This document shows, in pieces, positions 10,519 to 33,548 of a stretch of DNA of 64,000 bases (the stretch's first letter is position 1; every line of letters starts with the position of its first letter). Below the pieces are notes generated by a model, which saw nothing but the letters and a program-made list of their open reading frames with translations, was not told the DNA's origin and made no database searches. The stretch covers positions 576,001-640,000 of the forward strand of contig CAVTQK010000021.1 of NCBI GenBank assembly GCA_963736855.1. The letters run 5' to 3'. The position numbers and the translations under genes are program-made. This stretch comes from an uncultured delta proteobacterium. GTDB taxonomy: Bacteria > Desulfobacterota > Desulfobacteria > Desulfobacterales > UBA2156.

Positions 10519-10827
10519 ATGAACCCAAAAATATCATCAATCCCCAAAGATACCCTTGCCGCATTTTGCCAAGCGCGTGGCATCCGGCGGCTGGCGTTTT
10601 TCGGTTCGGCGCTGCGTGACGATTTCCGCCCGGACAGCGACATCGACGTGCTGGTCGAGTTCGAACCCGACCGCATCCCCGGCCTGTTCGGAATTGCATG
10701 CATGGAGCGAGAGCTATCCGTGTTGCTGGGCGGCCGTAAAGTCGATATGCGCACATCTGAAGATCTCAGCCGGTATTTTCGTAAGCGAGTCCTCGCTGAA
10801 GCAGAGGTTCAGTATGCGGCCGGATGA
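10519..10827 (+). CDS. mntA: MNT-family nucleotidyltransferase antitoxin
   Basis: [22 protein letters not shown] (GSx10DxD motif). Confidence 0.88.
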
Positions 10828-11158
10828 TCTGATCCGGTTGCGCCACATTCTGGATGCCGCGCACGAGGTTATCGGTTTTGTCCATGGCCGCTCCCGTGAC
10901 GATCTTGGTTGCGACCGTCAACTCGTTTTGGCGCTGGTCAAGGCGATCGAAATTATTGGCGAAGCTGCACATCAGATGGACCCAGCCTCCAGAGCTGAGG
11001 TGCCGGGCATCCCATGGGATGACATAATCGGTATGCGCCACCGATTGGTGCATGCCTATTTTGAAATCAACCTGGACATCCTATGGAAAACCATACAAGG
11101 TGATTTGCCTCCGCTGATCGCAACCCTGGAACCCTTTGTGCCACCTGAGGAAACATAA
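10814..11158 (+). CDS. hepT: HepT-like (DUF86/HEPN) RNase toxin
   Basis: Overlaps the antitoxin stop; [22 protein letters not shown] (Rx4HxY). Confidence 0.88.
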
Positions 11159-11300: not shown

Positions 11301-11339
11301 CATTTACATTTACATTGACATTTACATTTTTATATGTCA
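11301..11339 (+). promoter_or_regulatory. Promoter/operator region of the lexA cassette: five CATT(T/G)(A/T) hexamers and a TGACAT-N12-ATGTCA inverted repeat overlapping a TTGACA -35
   Basis: CATTTA CATTTA CATTGA CATTTA CATTTT TATATGTCA; TTGACA at 11315-11320. Confidence 0.55.
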
Positions 11340-11380: not shown

Positions 11381-12022
11381 TTGATGCCGACGGAATTTAC
11401 ACAAAAACAGCAGCGGCTTCTCGACTATCTCAAAGAGGCAGCGTCCAAAACCGGGGGGACGCCCAGTCTGCGCCGGGCGGCGGATCATCTCGGTGTCAGC
11501 CATGCCGCCGTGTCCCAGATGATCCGGGCCCTCGAAAAAAAGGGGGCACTACACCGGGAGGGGCGTTACGGCCGCACCGTTCATCTTCTCAATCGTATGG
11601 GGCAGCCGACAGGAGTTTCACGCTGGCGGGAAATCCCCGTGGTGGGGAATATCGCCGCCGGGTTGCCTCTGTACGCCCAGCAGGAGTGGGGAGGAAGCCT
11701 GGTGGTGGACGCGGACCTGTACGGCGGGGCGAATTTGTTCGCCCTTACGGTCCGGGGGGATTCCATGAAAGACGCCGGGATCCTGGACGGGGACCTGGCC
11801 GTGTGCGAGCCAAGACAGTTCGCCGAAAACGGGGAGATCGTGGCGGTTTTGATCCGGCAGGAGGAAGCCACGGTGAAGCGCTTTTTCCTTCGAAAAAAAC
11901 ACATCGAACTGCGGCCTGAAAATACCGCGCATCGTCCCATGATCTGCGGATTCGATGAAGTCCTGGTCCAGGGAAAAGTCATCGGCATCCAACGGGGACC
12001 CGATGTCATGAAACGAGTGTAA
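11381..12022 (+). CDS. lexA: LexA repressor
   Basis: Winged-HTH N-terminus, Ala-Gly cleavage site (IAAG), catalytic Ser (GDSM) and Lys (TVKR); GGAGG RBS. Confidence 0.92.
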   Translation: MMPTEFTQKQQRLLDYLKEAASKTGGTPSLRRAADHLGVSHAAVSQMIRALEKKGALHREGRYGRTVHLLNRMGQPTGVSRWREIPVVGNIAAGLPLYAQQEWGGSLVVDADLYGGANLFALTVRGDSMKDAGILDGDLAVCEPRQFAENGEIVAVLIRQEEATVKRFFLRKKHIELRPENTAHRPMICGFDEVLVQGKVIGIQRGPDVMKRV

Positions 12023-12031
12023 GGATCCGCC

Positions 12032-12844
12032 ATGCCCGGTTGCACCCTTTTCGTCGGCACCAGCGGCTATTCCTACACCGAGTGGGTGGAGGCCGGATTC
12101 TATCCGGAAGGAACCCCGTCCGGGCGGATGCTTCCCTTGTATGCCCTGGAATTTTCCATCACCGAACTCAACTACACCTGGTATCAGATGCCCAAGGCCG
12201 AAGCCGTGGAACGCCAGCGGTCCCTGGCGCCGCCCGGTTTTTTGTTTGCCGCCAAACTCACGCGCACCCTGACCCATGAAATCGATCCGGAAACCTGGAA
12301 AAAGGACGCCGCATCTTACCGGGACGGCATCACCCCCCTCCTCCAGGCCGGACAGCTCGCCGCGGTCCTGATCCAGTTTCCCCCTTCATTTACCCGCACG
12401 CCCGAACACCGGAAACACCTGGCCGCCCTCATCGCCGAGCTGGACGGGCTTCCATTGGCCGTGGAATTCCGCCACCGGTCCTGGAACGACGAGCGGGTCT
12501 TTACGGAACTGAAAAAGCGCCGGGTCACCCTGGTGAATGTCGATGCGCCGGATCTTCCGGGGCTTTTCCCGGCCCTGAATGTGGTCACCCGTCCCGACCT
12601 GTTTTATGTCCGGTTCCACGGCCGCAACGCCAAAGGGTGGCGGTCCGGGAAGATGCATCTCCAGTTCGATTACAGTTACAGCGATGACGAATTAAAGGAC
12701 TGGATCGGAAACCGGATCGCGCCCATGGCTTCACAGGCCCGGCGAGGCATCCTCTTTTTCAACAACCACGTCCGGGCCCAGGCCCCGGAAAACGCCAAAC
12801 GGTTCATCCGTCTTCTCAAGGAACACGGGCTTTCCACGGCGTAA
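12032..12844 (+). CDS. DUF72 (YecE-like) TIM-barrel protein
   Basis: VGTSGYSY..W...FYP, ELNYTWY, LIQFPPSF, VEFRH.SW, YVRFHGRN, FFNNH. Confidence 0.9.
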   Translation: MPGCTLFVGTSGYSYTEWVEAGFYPEGTPSGRMLPLYALEFSITELNYTWYQMPKAEAVERQRSLAPPGFLFAAKLTRTLTHEIDPETWKKDAASYRDGITPLLQAGQLAAVLIQFPPSFTRTPEHRKHLAALIAELDGLPLAVEFRHRSWNDERVFTELKKRRVTLVNVDAPDLPGLFPALNVVTRPDLFYVRFHGRNAKGWRSGKMHLQFDYSYSDDELKDWIGNRIAPMASQARRGILFFNNHVRAQAPENAKRFIRLLKEHGLSTA

Positions 12845-12845
12845 C

Positions 12846-14024
12846 ATGCGGGAGCGGTTCATCATCCATTTCAACGTGGCCGATTTCGCCTCGGCGGTGG
12901 AGCGTGTCCTGGAGCCCCGGCTCCAGGGACGTCCCCTTCTCATCGCGCCTGAAGGAAGCCCCCGGGCCGTCGTGTACGACATGAGCGAGGAGGCTTACCG
13001 GCACGGGATCCGCAAAGGGATGCCTATCCGCAAGGCCCTGCGGCGCTGCCCCGGCGCCACGGTCCTCCCGCCCCACCCGGACCGGTATGAACGGGCCATG
13101 CGGGCTTTCCTAGAGCACGCCCTCCCCTACTCCCCCCTCATTGAAATCACGGACTGTCAGGGACATCTCTTTCTCGACGTGACCGGAACCGGGAGGCTCT
13201 TCGGCCCTCCGCCGGATCTTGCCTGGCGCATCCGAAAAACCGTGCGGTCCGGCATGGGACTGAATCCCATCTGGTCCGTGGCTCCCAATAAATTAACGGC
13301 CAAGGTGGCGACCCGGATAGTCAAGCCTGTAGGCGAGTACATCATCGGCGCCGGCGAAGAAGAAGCGTTTCTGGCGCCTTTGCCCCTGCACCTGATTCCC
13401 GGGATCGAATCGGAGGACCTGAAGCGATTTTCCGACTTCAATCTGACGCATGTGCGGGAGGCGGCCCGTCTTTCCGAGGAACATCTTATCCTTCTTTTCG
13501 ATCGACGGGGAACAACCCTTCACGAGGCCCTCCACGGCATCGATCCGTCGCCGGTACGCCCCTTTACCCACGGGCCTCCCGTAGTGACCGTGGATCACGT
13601 CTTCGAAGAGGATGCGCATTCCCCGGCGTATCTCGATCAGGCTCTGTTTCAGCTTGTGGAACAGGCCGGGATCCGCCTGCGCAAACAACGGCTGGCCGCA
13701 GGTCGGATCCGCGTGGCCCTCGACTATTCCGACGGGATTCGGGCAGCCCGGCAAGCGGCTGTCGATCCGGCATCCGCCAACGACTTTTGCCTCTTCCCGG
13801 CGGCTCGGACGCTTTTACGGCACGCCTGGAAACGCCGGGTCCGGGTGCGCCGTCTGGCCCTGGTCTGCGACCGGCTTACCTATCCGCCGCCGCTCCAGCA
13901 GGACCTGTTTGCCGAAGACACCCGGGAAAAAATCGCCCAGGAAAGACTGGTTTCCGCCATGGACGCCATTCGAGACCGCTTCGGAGCGGGTGCCGTCCGG
14001 ACCGGACGGGTGCTGGCTGCCTGA
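12846..14024 (+). CDS. imuB: Y-family polymerase homolog, probably catalytically inactive (ImuB-like)
   Basis: DinB fold, but HFNVADF replaces HxDxDxF and the SIDE motif is absent (EITDCQGHLFLD); clamp-binding QQDLF; C-terminal MDAIRDRFG. Confidence 0.8.
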   Translation: MRERFIIHFNVADFASAVERVLEPRLQGRPLLIAPEGSPRAVVYDMSEEAYRHGIRKGMPIRKALRRCPGATVLPPHPDRYERAMRAFLEHALPYSPLIEITDCQGHLFLDVTGTGRLFGPPPDLAWRIRKTVRSGMGLNPIWSVAPNKLTAKVATRIVKPVGEYIIGAGEEEAFLAPLPLHLIPGIESEDLKRFSDFNLTHVREAARLSEEHLILLFDRRGTTLHEALHGIDPSPVRPFTHGPPVVTVDHVFEEDAHSPAYLDQALFQLVEQAGIRLRKQRLAAGRIRVALDYSDGIRAARQAAVDPASANDFCLFPAARTLLRHAWKRRVRVRRLALVCDRLTYPPPLQQDLFAEDTREKIAQERLVSAMDAIRDRFGAGAVRTGRVLAA

Positions 14025-14026
14025 CC

Positions 14027-17018
14027 ATGATCCCCCTTTGCGTCCATTCGCATTTTTCCCTGATGGAAGGGACCGCCTCACCGAAACAGCTTTGTCAAAA
14101 AGCGCGGGCATTGGGATACCGTCGCCTGGCGCTGACCGACACGGACAACCTCTATGGCCTGTGGCCTTTTCTCGAAGGCTGCCGGGAGGAAGGGATTACC
14201 CCCATCGTCGGCGCCGCAGTGACGGATCCGAAGTCCAAGCACCGGATCGTCTGCCTGGTGGAAAACGATTCCGGATACCGCAATCTCTGTCGTCTCATCA
14301 CCCGCCGCCGCTGCGATAAGGCCTTTGACCTGAAAACCGCCCTTCCCTGTTTCAGCACAGGACTTGCGGTCCTGACATCGGCTCCAGAATGGCTTGCCTT
14401 CTGGCACGAGGCCGGCGTGACCGTGGCGGCGGCCCTGTTCCACAGTCCCGATGCCGCGGGATTGACGCTGCGAAACCTTTCCCGGCGCCTTGGGATTCCC
14501 TTTGTGGCTGCACCGGAAACCTTTCTTTGCGACCCGGAAGCGTTTGCCATCCACCGGTTGCTTCGGGCCATCGCCAAAAACACCTCCTTTTCCCGGTTGT
14601 CCGCTGCGGATACGGTTTCGCCCGACGCCTCTTTATCCCCTCCATCCGTTTATGCCCAACGATTTCATCTGTGGCCCGAGACCTTGGCCGCCGCCGACAC
14701 CCTGGCCGAGCGCCTCACATTTACCGGCCCGGATTTCGGTCTGGTGCTGCCTCCCTGGTCCGACCCCCGGGGGCGCCCCGCTGCTTGTGCCCTGAGGGAA
14801 TCGGCCTATACAGGCGCCCGAAGTCGCTACGGCGAAGACCTTCCGGAAACCGTGGTGGAGCGCCTGGAGCACGAGCTTTCCATTATCGAGACCATGGGGT
14901 TTTCAGCTTACTTTCTGATTGTGCAGGATATCGTGAAAAAAAGCCCCCGCATCTGCGGCCGGGGAAGCGGAGCCGCATCGCTTACAGCGTATGCCCTGGG
15001 GATCACCAACGTTTGCCCGATCAAATATAACCTGTACTTCGAGCGGTTCCTGAATCCGGGGCGGAAAGACCCGCCGGACATCGACGTGGATTTTGCCTGG
15101 GACGAACGGGATGCCGTCATTGAAGCTGTTTTGAAACAATATGCCGGACACAGCGCCATGGTATGCAACCATGTCGCCTTTCAGCCGCGGATGGCGGTCC
15201 GGGAAACGGCGAAGGTGTTCGGGCTTACAGAGGCAGAGATCGGCCGGGTTTCCAAACGCCTCCCCTGGTTCTGGCGGATGGAGGATGCCGCGGAAGACCT
15301 CCTGGTAAAAATCCGGAACATGCCCGAACTCCGGAGCCTCGAATTTCCGGATCCCTGGCCGGAAATCCTCTACTTCGCCCAAAAAATCATCGGAACCCCG
15401 CGCCACATCTCTGTGCATTCGGGAGGGGTGGTGATTACTCCCCATCCCATCGAAGACTATGTTCCCATCGAAATAGCCCCCAAGGGGGTACCCATCATCC
15501 AGTGGGAAAAGGAGGGCGCCGAGGCCGGCGGCATGGTCAAGATCGATCTTCTGGGAAACCGCAGCCTGGGCGTGATTCGGGACGCTATAGCCAACCTCTC
15601 TGAAAACGGCACCCCACTGGATGAAGCCCGCTGGAATCCGGAAGACGACCCGGCAACCCAAAAAAGTGTGGCCGAAGGAAAGACCATGGGGTGCTTTTAC
15701 ATCGAAAGTCCGGCCATGCGCCTGCTCCAAAAAAAGGCCGGTACAGGAGATTTCGAGCACCTGGTGATCCACAGCAGCATCATCCGGCCGGCGGCAAACG
15801 AATTCATCCGGGAGTACCTGCGTCGTCTCCACGGCGCCCCCTGGAAACCCTTTCATCCCCTCCTGAACGATGTCCTCGATGAAACTTTCGGGATCCTGGT
15901 GTACCAGGAGGACGTCTCCAAGACGGCGGTGGCCCTGGCCGGCTTCTCCCACGCCGAAGCGGACGGGCTGCGCAAAATCCTGTCCAAAAAAGATAAGGCA
16001 AGACGTCTCAAAGACTATCAGGAGCGCTTTTTTGACGGAGCTTTCCGCCAGGGGGTTTCCAAGGAGTGCATCGAAGCGGTCTGGAACATGATGTCAAGCT
16101 TTGACGGGTATTCTTTCTGCAAGCCCCACAGCGCCAGCTACGCCCGGGTCTCCTTCCAGGCCGCGTATCTGAAAACCCATTTTCCGGCCGAATTCATGGC
16201 CGCCGTCATCAGCAACCAGGGCGGATTTTACAGCCCTCTTTGCCTATGTTTCGGAAGCCCGGCGTATGGGGGTGGCTATCCTTGGCCCGGATGTCAACCA
16301 AAGTGAAATCCGGTGGAAAGGAAAAGAAAAATCCATGCGCGTGGGACTGCTTTCCATTTCAGGGCTAAGCCGGGCCACCCGGGAAAAAATCGTGGAAAAG
16401 CGAAAGACGAGCCCTTACCAGAGTCTCAAGGACTTCCTGAACAGGGTCCGTCCGGATGCTTCCGAGGCGAGCCATTTGATCCACGCCGGGGCTTTCGATG
16501 CCCTTCATCCCCGTGAAAGCCGGGCCGCTTTGCTGTGGGAGCTGGCCGTATGGCAAAAAAACCGGCTTCCGAAAACAGATCTTTTCTCAAGCGTCCATCC
16601 GTCCGAAAGACCGGATTTTCCGAATGACTCCGAAAAGAGTCGTCTCAGAAACACCTACGCCGCCCTGGGTTTTCTCTGTGACCGGCACCCTATGGTTCTT
16701 TTTTCCGAAACGCTTAAAAATAAAGGGATCATCAAAGCCGAAAACATGCATCGATACGCCGGAAAACCAGTACAAACCGCCGGCTTGCTGATAACCGGAA
16801 AAGTCGTCCACACCAAACATGGGGAGCCCATGGAGTTTTTAACCTTCGAGGATGAAACCGGCCTTATGGAAACCGTCTTTTTCCCCGAGGCTTACCGTCG
16901 GTTCTGCACCATCCTGGATAAATCCCGGCCCTTTGTTCTTTCCGGAAAGGTCGAAGAAGAATTCGGGGCAGCGACACTGACGGTCAATCGTGTATCGGCG
17001 CTTCCTAAAACGGATTAA
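14027..17018 (+). CDS. dnaE2: Error-prone DNA polymerase III alpha (DnaE2/ImuC); single frameshift near 16236
   Basis: PHP domain HSHFS, GRGSGA.S, PPDIDVDF, KIDLLG, YSFCKPHS; QGGFYSP|FAYVSEARRMGV is restored by removing one base; C-terminal OB fold FLTFEDETG. Confidence 0.9.
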
Positions 17019-18120: not shown

Positions 18121-20082
18121 ATGCAGGATAATAATCCCGTCGCTACCCTCCGGTCTTTGCGCCGAGGTATCTCGAATATGGCGCGGATCCTGTGTATTGA
18201 AGACCCACAGATCGATTCATGGATCCGTGCGCTGGACTTGAAGCTTTTTCCCCGGGTGGATCCGGATTTTCCATTAATTGCCGCAATCTGTGGGGGAGGC
18301 TCTTCTGGAAAATCGACCCTGTTCAATACCCTGATCGGATCCAGGATCTCTCCCACCGGCGGCCGCGCCGGCATGAATCGACGTGTTTTCATGGCTCTTC
18401 CCGAAAATATCGCTTCGAGAAAAGACTTTCTATTTTCCCTATACGAACCCTTCGGGGTTGTCCCGGAGCAACTGCGGGATCCACAAACCCTTGAGGAGCC
18501 GGGGGCCCCTTTGTATATGATCAGCAATGCGGTTCCCAAGAACCTGATTCTTCTAGACACACCGGATTTCGATACAGGTTCCAGGGGCGTCTACGCGAAT
18601 CGGCAAGAAGCAGAGAACGCCCTCGAGACGGCGGACGTCTTTATCTACGTCTTCACCAATTCCAATTATAACAACCGGGACAACACCGATTTTATTTCCC
18701 GGATGTTGACAGGCATCGGCATGCGCAAGGCCTTTTTGGTCTATCGGGCCTACCCCGGCTTCACCGATGCGGAAGTCTGCGAGCATGCCATGACGGTTGC
18801 TAAAAACATCTATGGGGAAAATGCCGAAAAGTATATTTTAGGAATATACCGCGCCGATGAAAACAACGCCGTAGCAGCCGGAAAGGCCTTTCTTTCCCTC
18901 GATCCTGCTCATACTCAATACCTTCCGTTTCATGAAGCCATCGATGCCATCGATCCGTTAATACTCCGTAAAGATATGCTGGATTCGGTGGCAACCGACG
19001 CCGGCAGGAAAGCCCGGCCTCTCGCAGAAGGACTCGAGCAGTCCTATGAAAAGCTTCTCCGATACACGAAGCTCCTGAAAGCCATACAAGACACTCAAAT
19101 CCGGGCAAGCCTTCGCCATTTCCCTACGGACCGGGTCCTGAAACGATTCACAAAAATCTGGATGACCCTGGATCCGCCCTTCATCCGCACCCTTCGAAAG
19201 ACCGGTCAGCTCATGGAGATCCCATTCAAACTACTTGTAAAAGCAGCAAAATGGTTGGGCAGATCAAGCGATTCAGAGTCCTCTGCAAAGGATACCGGGG
19301 CCTTCGAACATCAAGTGGAATCCGATCTGCTCCATGCCGCCCATGAGCTCTTTTCGGCCGCCCTTGCCGAACATCTCTCCGTCGCTGTAACCCATGGAGA
19401 TATCCCCGGACACGACTCCGGGACTCCTCACGAAACGAGAAAAACTGCCCAACCGACATCGCCCCAGGAAACCTTTCAGGCATTGGACGTCTTGGCACAT
19501 TCCGTAGTCTTTCCAGAGCAAAACGCCCTGTCTGCTATCGGCTGGCAAACCACACGGGATGCCATCCTCGCCCGGAAAGAGGCGATTGTGGCCTTTTCAA
19601 ACCAAATGGATATGGAGCTGATTCGAATCGCCGGGGATTTCCGAAAACGGATGCGCCCGATAGATCGGATCCGTCAGTCTCTTTCGGCTGCATTGAACAT
19701 CCTGCCCGCCACCCTAGCCGTAACCTACGTCCTTCACACCGGAGATCCCGTGGGCGCCGTGGGGATCAAAGTCAAACTGGCAAGCCTTCTCGGGGCCAAG
19801 GACCTCTATGCGCTGCTCGCCATTCCTGCAACGGCCGGTCTCAAGGCTGCGGACATGAAGCAGCTTCAGGAAATGCTGGAACCCCTGGCCCGATCCTGGT
19901 TTGAAAATAAATATAAAGAAACTGCAAAGATCTTTGAATCCCATATCACCGGCAGGATATTCGATCGTGCCGATGAAGCGCTTTCACAATCCGGCTTACT
20001 GATGAAAAAAATCCAGGAAGATCTTGAGGCGATGGAGTCGGGTATCCTTGAAAACAGACCGGGACATAACGATCGTGTCTAA
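18121..20082 (+). CDS. Dynamin-like/TRAFAC GTPase with a long helical C-terminus (protein A)
   Basis: G1 GGGSSGKST, G3 DTPDFD, G4 not canonical (YRAY); hydrophobic segment near the C-terminus. Confidence 0.75.
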   Translation: MQDNNPVATLRSLRRGISNMARILCIEDPQIDSWIRALDLKLFPRVDPDFPLIAAICGGGSSGKSTLFNTLIGSRISPTGGRAGMNRRVFMALPENIASRKDFLFSLYEPFGVVPEQLRDPQTLEEPGAPLYMISNAVPKNLILLDTPDFDTGSRGVYANRQEAENALETADVFIYVFTNSNYNNRDNTDFISRMLTGIGMRKAFLVYRAYPGFTDAEVCEHAMTVAKNIYGENAEKYILGIYRADENNAVAAGKAFLSLDPAHTQYLPFHEAIDAIDPLILRKDMLDSVATDAGRKARPLAEGLEQSYEKLLRYTKLLKAIQDTQIRASLRHFPTDRVLKRFTKIWMTLDPPFIRTLRKTGQLMEIPFKLLVKAAKWLGRSSDSESSAKDTGAFEHQVESDLLHAAHELFSAALAEHLSVAVTHGDIPGHDSGTPHETRKTAQPTSPQETFQALDVLAHSVVFPEQNALSAIGWQTTRDAILARKEAIVAFSNQMDMELIRIAGDFRKRMRPIDRIRQSLSAALNILPATLAVTYVLHTGDPVGAVGIKVKLASLLGAKDLYALLAIPATAGLKAADMKQLQEMLEPLARSWFENKYKETAKIFESHITGRIFDRADEALSQSGLLMKKIQEDLEAMESGILENRPGHNDRV

Positions 20083-21841
20083 AAAAGAAATCTTACGAAT
20101 CCAGGGTATCGGGAAAATTGAAGGGTATCTAACCGATATCCGACGTCTCGAAAATACTTTGGGTCAAGCATCCCTTTGGACTCCGGGTGCTTCATTGATC
20201 CGGGAGTGCCGTGAAGCGTTTCATCTGATCAGCTCCCTGAAAGAGCGTTTCGAACGCAAGCTCATCATCACCCTTATCGGTGCATCCGGCTCCGGAAAAT
20301 CCACACTTTTCAATGCCCTTTCCGGTGTGGACGATCTCTCGGAAACCGGATTGAAACGCCCGACAACGAGAAAGATTGTCCTCCTCTCACAAGCCGGAAC
20401 AGATGCCGGGGACCTCATCCGGGAGCTCGGAAGCGAACATGTGCAAATTCGACACATTCCTGAAACCTCTTTTTTGGAAAATGCGGTGCTCATCGATACA
20501 CCCGACACGGACAGCACCCTTCTCGAGGAACACCGTATCCTCATCCATAAGGCGATCGCTTTTTCCGATGTTCTCATCTGCCTGTTTGATGCCCAAAATC
20601 CGAAAAGAAAAGACCATGCCGATTTTCTTGCCTCTTATGTCCACCGATTCGACGGAGAATCCCTCATCGCGGTATTGAATAAATGCGATCGGTTGGAAAA
20701 AGAAGAACTGATCACGACCATCGTTCCCGAATTTTTGGGATACATTCAGGATTCATGGGAAAAGCCGGCCGAAGCGCTCTATTGTATATCCGGTCGGAAT
20801 CATCTGAAAAATCCCGGATGGGATCCGTCTGCGAGCCCCCTTCATGAGTTCGATCAATTCGATACGCTCAAAGAAAAGATCCTGCTGGCATCCGCCTATG
20901 AAGGGGCTCTTTTCGACCGCCGCCTGAAGAATGCCCAAGAGATTCTGGACTATCTTTTCAAGCAAGTGAAAACCGAAGCATCAAAGGATCGGGAAACCCT
21001 GTCACATGCCCTGAATCAAATCCGGGATCTCGAAAAGAAGGCTGCCGACAGTGCAATGGCTGTCCTTCAATCCAATGATTCTCCTTCTCTTTTTTCACTA
21101 TCGACCCGCATCTATCAGGAACTGGTCCAACGCTGGACAGGGCCTGTGGGTTGGCTCATCGCCCTCTGGTGCCGGCTGCTCTCATTTGGAAGCGGGATTG
21201 CATCTCTTTTCCGCTTACCCAAGTCGGTTCGGCATATCAAGGATCGAATTACGTCTTTTCATCGCCCAGTCAGTGCCGAAATGAAGCCTTTTTCAGCAAC
21301 CGGTGGGGAATCCAACGGCCTGGCCCTGAAGGAATATCGTTTGGTGATCGTCAGACACTGGGGGGATATTGCAGCAGCACTGATCAAAGGACGCTTCGAC
21401 CCTTCCACGCGGCAAATCGACACGCTCGTCCAAGGGAGGGAAGCATTGGAAGATTATCTTTCATCCGTTTGGAACACGGCCCTTGCCGAAGAAATCAGGG
21501 AGACTGCCGACCGTCTCAGCGGCTTTTTCATACAGTTTTTATTTAATTTGCCGATACTGGGGATATCGGGTTACGCGGCATGGTTAACCATCAGGGACTT
21601 TATTCAGGGGAAGATACTTCCTTTCGATTTTTTTCTGCACGCCTTCTTTGCCATTGGCGTCACCCTTTTTTTGAGTTTTTTCGCATTCCAGGCTTGGGTC
21701 CGGTTCTTCGCGAAAAAGCGTCGCATTGAAGCGCGCGCACTCCAGGCAACACATCGAACGACCGGCCCCGACGGTTGGCTCGGGGAGAGCGCCATCGCCG
21801 GCCAGGTCGCAACAGTCCTTACATTCACACAAAGTGTCTGA
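20075..21841 (+). CDS. Dynamin-like GTPase with a C-terminal transmembrane hairpin (protein B)
   Basis: GTG start overlapping the upstream stop; G1 GASGSGKST, G2 RPTT, G3 DTPDTDS, G4 NKCD; two TM segments. Confidence 0.78.
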   Translation: MSKKEILRIQGIGKIEGYLTDIRRLENTLGQASLWTPGASLIRECREAFHLISSLKERFERKLIITLIGASGSGKSTLFNALSGVDDLSETGLKRPTTRKIVLLSQAGTDAGDLIRELGSEHVQIRHIPETSFLENAVLIDTPDTDSTLLEEHRILIHKAIAFSDVLICLFDAQNPKRKDHADFLASYVHRFDGESLIAVLNKCDRLEKEELITTIVPEFLGYIQDSWEKPAEALYCISGRNHLKNPGWDPSASPLHEFDQFDTLKEKILLASAYEGALFDRRLKNAQEILDYLFKQVKTEASKDRETLSHALNQIRDLEKKAADSAMAVLQSNDSPSLFSLSTRIYQELVQRWTGPVGWLIALWCRLLSFGSGIASLFRLPKSVRHIKDRITSFHRPVSAEMKPFSATGGESNGLALKEYRLVIVRHWGDIAAALIKGRFDPSTRQIDTLVQGREALEDYLSSVWNTALAEEIRETADRLSGFFIQFLFNLPILGISGYAAWLTIRDFIQGKILPFDFFLHAFFAIGVTLFLSFFAFQAWVRFFAKKRRIEARALQATHRTTGPDGWLGESAIAGQVATVLTFTQSV

Positions 21842-26577: not shown

Positions 26578-26976
26578 ATGGTCATTTTTTGGGAAAACCG
26601 GGGAAATTGGACCTTTTTCTCACGCATACTAATTCTTGCATGGATCTTTTCGGCCATGGCAATCCCCCCGGTTTATGGCTTTCGCTGCGGTACACGCCTG
26701 GTTTCCATAGGAGACAGAGCAATAGATGTTAGGAGAAACTGTGGGGCTCCCGATGATATTCAGGCATGGGAAGAAGAACGCGTTATGCGAGATTTTGGTA
26801 CTTACCGGGATGACGGGAGCCGATACCCGACCCGGGAACCGATCTTTGTAAAAGTTCATGTAAAGGTTGAAGAATGGATTTATAACTTAGGTCCACATAT
26901 GTTTATTAGGATACTAAGATTCGAAAATGGAAGGCTTGTGGAAATCAACACCGGCGATCGCGGTTATCCAAAGTAG
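26578..26976 (+). CDS. DUF2845-like secreted protein
   Basis: FRCGTRLVSIGD...CGAP...VEEWIYNLGP...LRFENGRL. Confidence 0.75.
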   Translation: MVIFWENRGNWTFFSRILILAWIFSAMAIPPVYGFRCGTRLVSIGDRAIDVRRNCGAPDDIQAWEEERVMRDFGTYRDDGSRYPTREPIFVKVHVKVEEWIYNLGPHMFIRILRFENGRLVEINTGDRGYPK

Positions 26977-33359: not shown

Positions 33360-33391
33360 CTTATCTCCCATATTCTTTTAGGTGCCGAATT

Positions 33392-33548
33392 TTGATGAAA
33401 TCGCAAAAACTCAAAATTCGGATGGCAAAGCAAAAAGTTCAAGTTCAAGGCGTCGCAAATCCCGTGTGATGAGGCGTACTTATCGTACGTCGAAATCGCA
33501 ACGGGATGAAGCGCAACGCAGAAATTGGACTTTTTACGAAGCCATCAA
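33392..33548. repeat. MITE/REPIN-like element with imperfect terminal inverted repeats
   Basis: TTGATGAAATCGCAAAAA ... CTTTTTACGAAGCCATCAA; second internal end GATGGCAAAGCAAAAAG at 33421; ends shared with 62328-62519. Confidence 0.7.

Follow-up and report, generated by a model that had tools for sequence, protein, structure and literature searches.

A DUF72 protein as predicted optional partner of the inactive polymerase scaffold in an ImuA-less lexA-iPolY-dnaE2 operon

What does a protein of the orphan family DUF72 do inside a sulfate reducer's operon for error-prone DNA replication? The question is raised by a 64,000-nucleotide (nt) stretch of DNA, hereafter the window, from an uncultured delta proteobacterium of the Desulfobacterales (assembly GCA_963736855.1, contig CAVTQK010000021.1), in which lexA, a DUF72 gene, a gene for an inactive Y-family polymerase homolog (iPolY) and dnaE2 follow one another. 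A sequence-only reading of this DNA had called the genes an SOS mutagenesis cassette and DUF72 a dedicated component of a variant mutasome, either replacing ImuA or supplying a nuclease step, and had suggested a neighborhood survey, a DUF72 tree, a genome search for imuA and a co-fold as checks. The tight coupling of the four genes was reproduced, with intergenic gaps of 9, 1 and 2 nt. From the analyses below, we lean slightly toward an ImuA-less, likely LexA-repressed iPolY-DnaE2 operon in which DUF72 docks on iPolY as an optional fourth subunit acting on damaged DNA. The four genes are as follows.

11384-12022, + strand: lexA (TIGR00498 above cut-off), the sole LexA of the genome, with cleavage site A92-G93 and S127/K165.
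12032-12844, + strand: gene for a DUF72 (PF01904) protein of a cassette-specific clade, a probable TIM-barrel enzyme (Pfam E 4e-56).
12846-14024, + strand: gene for iPolY, an inactive Y-family scaffold that is gbDinB2-like and not a canonical ImuB.
14027-17018, + strand: dnaE2, with catalytic D351, D353 and D507 present and a +1 frameshift in the assembly.

Pfam and NCBIfam assign LexA, DUF72, IMS/IMS_C and DNA polymerase III (Pol III) alpha domains to the cassette proteins. The source genome (3.9 Mb, 100% complete) contains a single lexA and a single DUF72 gene, and elsewhere has a separate dnaE as well as a gene for a DinB whose catalytic motifs are intact. The earlier label imuB for the third gene had to be dropped, as the top NCBIfam models were those of DNA polymerase IV, no ImuB model was matched and the protein carries no ImuB-C domain.

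When iPolY and DUF72 were co-folded, the pair scored 0.80 (runs: 0.81, 0.80 and 0.80) versus 0.43 for the best of three controls, with at least 97% contact agreement between runs and a predicted local distance difference test score (pLDDT) of at least 91 for the partners. The mark applied, attained by 116 of the 157 solved pairs against 2 of the 215 mismatched ones, is no more than a rough guide for the custom alignments used here, which comprised 75 rows from DUF72-linked cassettes only. Memory of a solved complex is an unlikely source of this result, because DUF72 was present only as lone hypothetical proteins in PDB sequence searches. The predicted interface comprises iPolY residues 116-127 and 163-178 and DUF72 loops 14-17, 29-32, 48-61, 78 and 207-209. 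Its main predicted contacts set iPolY W127, Y165 and I166 against DUF72 Y48, Y51, Q52 and R78, with W127-Y51 as the best pair. This co-fold, which is new in this work, supports binding of DUF72 to iPolY.

13224-13226, + strand: codon for W127 of iPolY, which makes the contact of lowest error in the co-fold.

The predicted site has a counterpart in a known system. iPolY residues A169, F175 and L179 align with E. coli DinB residues P166, F172 and L176, which are reported UmuD contacts (PMC4564189, citing Godoy et al.), and by this alignment the predicted DUF72 site overlaps the UmuD-binding patch of DinB. Both systems thus combine a Y-family polymerase (PolY), RecA and an accessory protein at the same face; however, DinB is active and UmuD is small and LexA-like, whereas the operon studied here is predicted to pair a dead PolY with what looks like an intact enzyme.

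Lineages that have naturally lost DUF72 provided sequences that were never used in the co-fold model. Of 103 DUF72-adjacent iPolYs, 92 retain W127; of 12 copies within the order from whose cassettes DUF72 has been lost, 3 do, as do both iPolYs whose DUF72 had moved elsewhere in the genome. Within the order, W127 ranks first of 326 columns, also with identity matching, and it ranks first in a tree-aware ranking from which the DUF72-less family f49 was left out. On the tree, 8 independent pairs were available for W127, of which 4.6 on average were concordant and 0.0 opposite. We also observed a 1.9-fold faster loss of consensus at the interface columns on branches without DUF72, compared with 1.28-fold for all 153 conserved columns (permutation p 0.037). 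On the other side of the predicted interface, cassette copies of DUF72 retain residues Q52, M53, R61 and R78 in 105-109 of 109 cases, compared with 2-11 of 33 for sister sequences. Because the co-fold and the loss of residues after DUF72 loss point to the same face, we place the probable docking site of DUF72 at the W127 face of iPolY.

The association itself is conserved. In 80 loci chosen by DUF72 similarity (denominators are loci with enough sequence), iPolY lies 3' of DUF72 in 70 of 73, lexA 5' in 61 of 67 and dnaE2 3' in 53 of 59. In an unselected sample of 251 Desulfobacterales genomes, among which kin are not independent, 128 contain cassette-type iPolY and 121 cassette-type DUF72; 113 contain both (the genes lying side by side within 1 kb in 106). 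iPolY occurs without DUF72 in 15 genomes and DUF72 without iPolY in 8, several of these last lying near contig ends. The 15 iPolY-only genomes break down into 12 DUF72-less cassettes, one broken DUF72 and two contig-end fragments, and lexA is found within 700 nt of iPolY in 11 of the 12 DUF72-less cassettes. Cassette DUF72 proteins form one clade (FastTree support 99, 99 rows). Conserved synteny, a DUF72 clade of its own and predicted binding to iPolY together support the earlier proposal that DUF72 is a dedicated component of a variant mutasome.

DUF72 is nevertheless dispensable to the operon. In an iPolY tree rooted with deeper sequences (a quick IQ-TREE from which 3 contig-end rows were dropped), DUF72-less copies are nested and the state of DUF72 changes 9 times; DUF72 thus entered a single branch of the module and later dropped out repeatedly. 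In family f49, 16 of 35 genomes contain iPolY, DUF72 is at none of the iPolY loci, and no DUF72 match was found anywhere in 4 of the 5 genomes tested. Across the phylum sample, DUF72 adjoins 5 of 34 non-own matches, 4 of the 5 being active-type DinB, and the deeper iPolYs of this sample (32-39% identity) have no adjoining DUF72.

The cassette has also traveled. A cassette-clade DUF72 is present in 4 of 251 Planctomycetota genomes, and the 3 loci examined contain DUF72-iPolY-dnaE2 at 50-67% identity, 2 of them behind a different lexA (31-33%); the triad has crossed into another phylum as a unit, leaving its lexA behind. Other branches of the DUF72 family contain the arrangements lexA-PolY-dnaE2-DUF72, active PolY-DUF72, lexA-dnaE-OB-DUF72 and lexA-OB-DUF72. 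The latter two, at loci L183 (with a dnaE of 883 amino acids and a small OB-fold gene) and L181, have distant DUF72 proteins (25-28%) and form a second cassette type, in which the OB domain is encoded as a separate gene. Between lexA and iPolY, distant cassettes also carry foreign genes: L164 and L165 have one for a four-helix 23S-IVP protein, and L167 has a restriction-modification pair of the BsuBI/PstI type.

These distributions bear on the idea that DUF72 is a passenger that landed once behind lexA and takes no part in tolerating damage. Its repeated loss, and the unrelated neighbors of most sister DUF72 genes, would be expected of a passenger; however, DUF72 is seldom kept without iPolY (8 of 121), it was retained through the cross-phylum transfer, and other DUF72 branches have independent SOS-type contexts. 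We consider this explanation improbable.

Several observations count against docking on iPolY. Of 12 copies from the DUF72-less family f49, 7 still have W127, and if f49 is counted as a loss W127 falls to 6th of 131 columns (Y165 is 4th and I166 10th). The phylogenetic sign test for W127 falls short of significance (median p 0.0625), and the 3.1-fold faster consensus loss of the five top-contact columns on DUF72-less branches (p 0.012) concerns a subset picked post hoc, with the co-fold model already known. Columns away from the interface (G58, D256, I7, L108 and R80) likewise speed up. The DUF72-side contacts are unchanged in all 10 clade members without iPolY in the locus, 2 of which come from genomes without any iPolY match, and therefore the DUF72 side does not discriminate. 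Y51 is conserved across the DUF72 family, where it has been proposed to insert into DNA (PMC3828134), and in the co-fold an aromatic loop of the active site may simply have come to rest on an exposed tryptophan. Beyond the interface, 15 of 17 non-clade DUF72 loci, drawn from one phylum and with 39 of 63 open reading frames (ORFs) scanned, have no SOS or polymerase neighbor; endonuclease IV and UVDE tie with or trail MbnB and sugar epimerases in the fold search; and dnaE2 is frameshifted in this assembly. As a separate observation, iPolY positions G58, D256, R230, R80, I7 and L108, all off the interface, fall in conservation in DUF72-less lineages and possibly mark a second contact or the DNA path.

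Some of the same points would suit a free-standing repair or detoxifying enzyme that shares only the LexA-controlled transcript and makes no contact with the mutasome. Such an enzyme could be dispensable, as the approximately 9 losses show DUF72 to be; lexA-DUF72 loci without iPolY exist (L297, L298) with unchanged contact residues; and DUF72 adjoins unrelated polymerases, polB2 included. In the polB2 mutasome operons of PMC11791011, DUF72 is likewise enriched beside a damage-inducible polymerase (119 DUF72 matches versus 1823 PolB2 in the supplement), but that polymerase belongs to another family and the available part of the source does not propose binding of DUF72 to the mutasome. A free-standing enzyme does not account for a co-fold that beats its controls, for the way W127, Y165 and I166 are lost preferentially once DUF72 has gone, or for transfer of the triad without its lexA, and we regard it as rather unlikely.

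If DUF72 docks on iPolY, it remains to ask what fills the place of ImuA. The catalytic acids of iPolY are replaced (D8 of DinB by N, D103-E104 by G-H), and the earlier description of a Y-family protein that lacks these acids yet retains a clamp motif was correct: QQDLF lies at residues 351-355 and is presumably a beta-clamp-binding motif, with Q351 invariant and L354 and F355 each conserved in at least 90% of 75 sequences. At the C-terminus, comparison of a tail profile (58 sequences) with the N-terminus of RecA from the same genome yielded an hhalign E of 3.9e-5 and a probability of 70.6% over a helix-strand motif. Plain hidden Markov model searches with the tail did not recover RecA, which was found only by profile-profile comparison, and we assign a RecA-NT motif to the tail with moderate confidence. 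The protein ends approximately 4 residues past this motif.

13896-13910, + strand: QQDLF, putative beta-clamp-binding motif of iPolY, identified from the sequence.
13929-14009, + strand: RecA-NT-like motif at the iPolY C-terminus, identified with hhalign.

From its sequence, iPolY is a member of the gbDinB2-like inactive PolY group, an assignment made by eye from signature stretches and an operon layout common to published Desulfobacterales rows rather than by computed clustering. Timinskas & Venclovas (PMC6511836) place Desulfobacterales proteins with these signatures in that group, and their Supplementary Table S4 lists 'LexA->{1}->iPolY->DnaE2' for Desulfococcus oleovorans and Desulfocapsa sulfexigens, leaving the inserted gene unnamed. 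Following the pairing of gbDinB2 with DnaE2B in PMC12926913, the cassette dnaE2 would belong to the DnaE2B group. PMC12926913 describes DnaE2B-iPolY-RecA as an ImuA-less module with a modeled complex, and therefore the missing ImuA is already explained without DUF72. Like the operon studied here, the module of these two papers has an inactive PolY close to the PolY core with a RecA-NT tail and no ImuB-C, a neighboring dnaE2, no imuA and often a lexA in front. In contrast, its published version, in the available parts of both sources, names no inserted gene and proposes no fourth enzymatic subunit. The PMC6511836 supplement names DUF72 nowhere, and neither the text of PMC12926913 nor the examined part of its supplement mentions it. 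We conclude that the cassette is of a known mutasome type, itself so far a published model, and that its DUF72 gene is unnamed in the literature searched.

Like the canonical (lexA)-imuA-imuB-dnaE2 cassette, this is a LexA-led operon with a dead Y-family scaffold bearing a clamp motif and an error-prone DnaE2, but it has neither ImuA nor ImuB-C, and its first slot holds the gene for a dispensable, probable TIM-barrel enzyme. A whole-genome profile search (PF00154, PF03846 and NF033429) yielded no imuA, its only matches being RecA, one RadA-like protein and weak P-loop hits, with the caveat that NF033429 reached its cut-off in 0 of 14 control genomes. The same gene position and the lack of imuA in the genome could suggest that DUF72 stands in for ImuA, perhaps with a DNA-processing activity, and the helicase and 5' exonuclease activity reported for M. 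smegmatis ImuA in a preprint (10.64898/2026.08.14.744951) would allow a loose functional analogy. However, DUF72 has the TIM-barrel rather than the RecA fold, its predicted site lies on the palm/thumb and not on the RecA-NT tail that binds ImuA, and the iPolY class has been published as ImuA-less and RecA-using. In addition, ImuA is essential in its own system (PMC6511836) while DUF72 is dispensable, iPolY-dnaE2 persisting without a DUF72 match in 4 of 5 f49 genomes and in the 12 within-order cassettes. Replacement of ImuA, the first option of the sequence-only reading, is therefore very improbable; the ImuA slot is likely filled by RecA, and we take DUF72 to be neither an ImuA substitute nor a passenger.

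To consider what a docked DUF72 might do, we compared its fold. The predicted structure is a TIM barrel (pLDDT 93.8) closest to TM1631 (Z 32.6) and EF0366 (Z 31.0). Next come MbnB (Z 16.0) and sugar epimerases (Z 14.6) in a group that spans Z 12-16, shows no clear front-runner and also includes sugar isomerases, endonuclease IV (Z 14.1, root-mean-square deviation 3.6, 224 residues aligned) and UVDE (Z 12.7, 4.2, 225 aligned); no RecA-fold protein is among the 50 listed matches. The family-conserved polar residues E45, K75, H82, Q115, E145, R147, D171, R194, H196, R198, N244 and N245 are intact, and because these conserved acidic, histidine and arginine residues are present DUF72 looks like an active enzyme. 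TM1631 (PDB 1vpq), which shares the fold, has been proposed to be an endonuclease, in silico only (PMC3828134; PMC4939058), and nuclease activity of the cassette protein is plausible from context and fold. DUF72 has solved structures, and we found no experimentally shown function in the DUF72 literature. Our search for work linking DUF72 with dnaE2, imuB or a mutasome, which did not cover most subscription journals, returned only PMC11791011, PMC3828134 and PMC4939058 as relevant. Single sequences fuse DUF72 to DUF4130 (P0227), a domain linked to SOS (PMC3765255), and to an RNA pseudouridylate synthase domain (P0233).

In the favored reading, damage would activate RecA, and LexA, whose catalytic residues are present, would cleave itself as is known for its family, freeing the direct-repeat operator suggested by conservation. 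iPolY would then bind the beta clamp via QQDLF and RecA via its RecA-NT tail and would recruit DnaE2; the iPolY-DnaE2-RecA complex of this step was modeled, not measured, in PMC12926913. DUF72 would bind the palm/thumb face of iPolY around W127, Y165 and I166, the face at which E. coli DinB binds UmuD, and would most likely nick, trim or sense a lesion next to the primer end, with nuclease chemistry at about an even chance. The more specific proposal of a four-protein mutasome (DUF72-iPolY-DnaE2B-RecA), with a lesion endonuclease on the UmuD-type face of a dead scaffold coupling incision to error-prone fill-in, is possible but doubtful.

If DUF72 does dock on iPolY, a large orphan family (8,528 representatives at 50% clustering match the cassette DUF72) would gain a concrete job in DNA-damage tolerance, and a TIM-barrel enzyme among the subunits would represent an architecture new to error-prone replication in bacteria. 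The accessory subunits described in the literature available to us (UmuD', YqjX/YolD, ImuB-C, SRAP-like, RecA/ImuA) all differ from DUF72. If the endonuclease proposal also held, DUF72 proteins would be lesion nucleases associated with mutasomes and repeatedly drawn into PolY, DnaE2 and PolB2 systems. A predicted partner, a named interface and natural knock-out lineages make the family experimentally approachable.

The proposed repression by LexA draws on a repeat, TTTACATTGACATTTACAT, which lies approximately 55-75 nt 5' of lexA and contains a TTGACA hexamer.

11303-11328, + strand: candidate LexA operator / -35 region, TTTACA-TTTACA-TTGACA-TTTACA, with core TTTACAT-N5-TTTACAT and a 12-bp period.

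The core is present within 3 mismatches 5' of lexA in 52 of 74 relatives (130-nt upstream segments), and the repeat has 3 matches in the window versus 0.15 expected. It precedes iPolY-dnaE2 where that pair is split from lexA-DUF72 (L300, L303), and is missing where lexA is absent or of another type. From this conservation, we read the direct repeat as a cassette-specific candidate LexA operator, and LexA itself looks dedicated to the cassette. A literature search found no published LexA motif for Desulfobacterales. The repeat was not found upstream of recA, and further strong matches, at window positions 26847-26864 (- strand) and at position 52826 of contig C9, precede no recognizable repair genes; we therefore rejected it as a genome-wide SOS box. 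An element upstream of recA and beside dinB was also rejected as an SOS box, as it belongs to a dispersed mobile repeat. This repeat, resembling a miniature inverted-repeat transposable element, is ~160 bp long (window 33389-33548) and has 97 blastn matches in the genome in two sub-families (~97% and ~78% identity), with copies upstream of recA and beside dinB. It is taken to be mobile because a contig from run X3 has an empty site, lacking precisely this element.

The dnaE2 label stood as to the Pol III alpha domains and catalytic aspartates, but the reading frame is split here by a +1 frameshift into ORFs 14027-16306 and 16266-17018.

16234-16238, + strand: site of the extra base in dnaE2.

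Contigs of 4 of 4 sequencing runs, none of which is the exact source of the assembly (strains mostly 95-99% alike), have one base fewer at this site. The spacing between flanking matches is 30 nt in all 69 related loci in which both flanks were matched, versus 31 nt here, and dnaE2 is continuous in these 69 loci, confining the frameshift to this assembly. A programmed frameshift was ruled out because the gene is continuous in relatives, and we attribute the break either to an assembly error or to a lesion specific to this strain. A second dnaE, on contig C24, is 31% identical to the cassette dnaE2. Loci L286 and L304 contain several frameshifts over DUF72, iPolY and dnaE2, reflecting decay or long-read error.

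Rfam gave no match within the window. Directly 5' of the cassette, at window 10519-11158, lies a pair of the MNT-HEPN toxin-antitoxin type (nucleotidyltransferase and HepT-like RNase). Downstream of htpX, at window 18121-21841, two overlapping ORFs of ~600-650 amino acids each contain an N-terminal P-loop GTPase motif and, judged by eye, resemble a dynamin-like pair.

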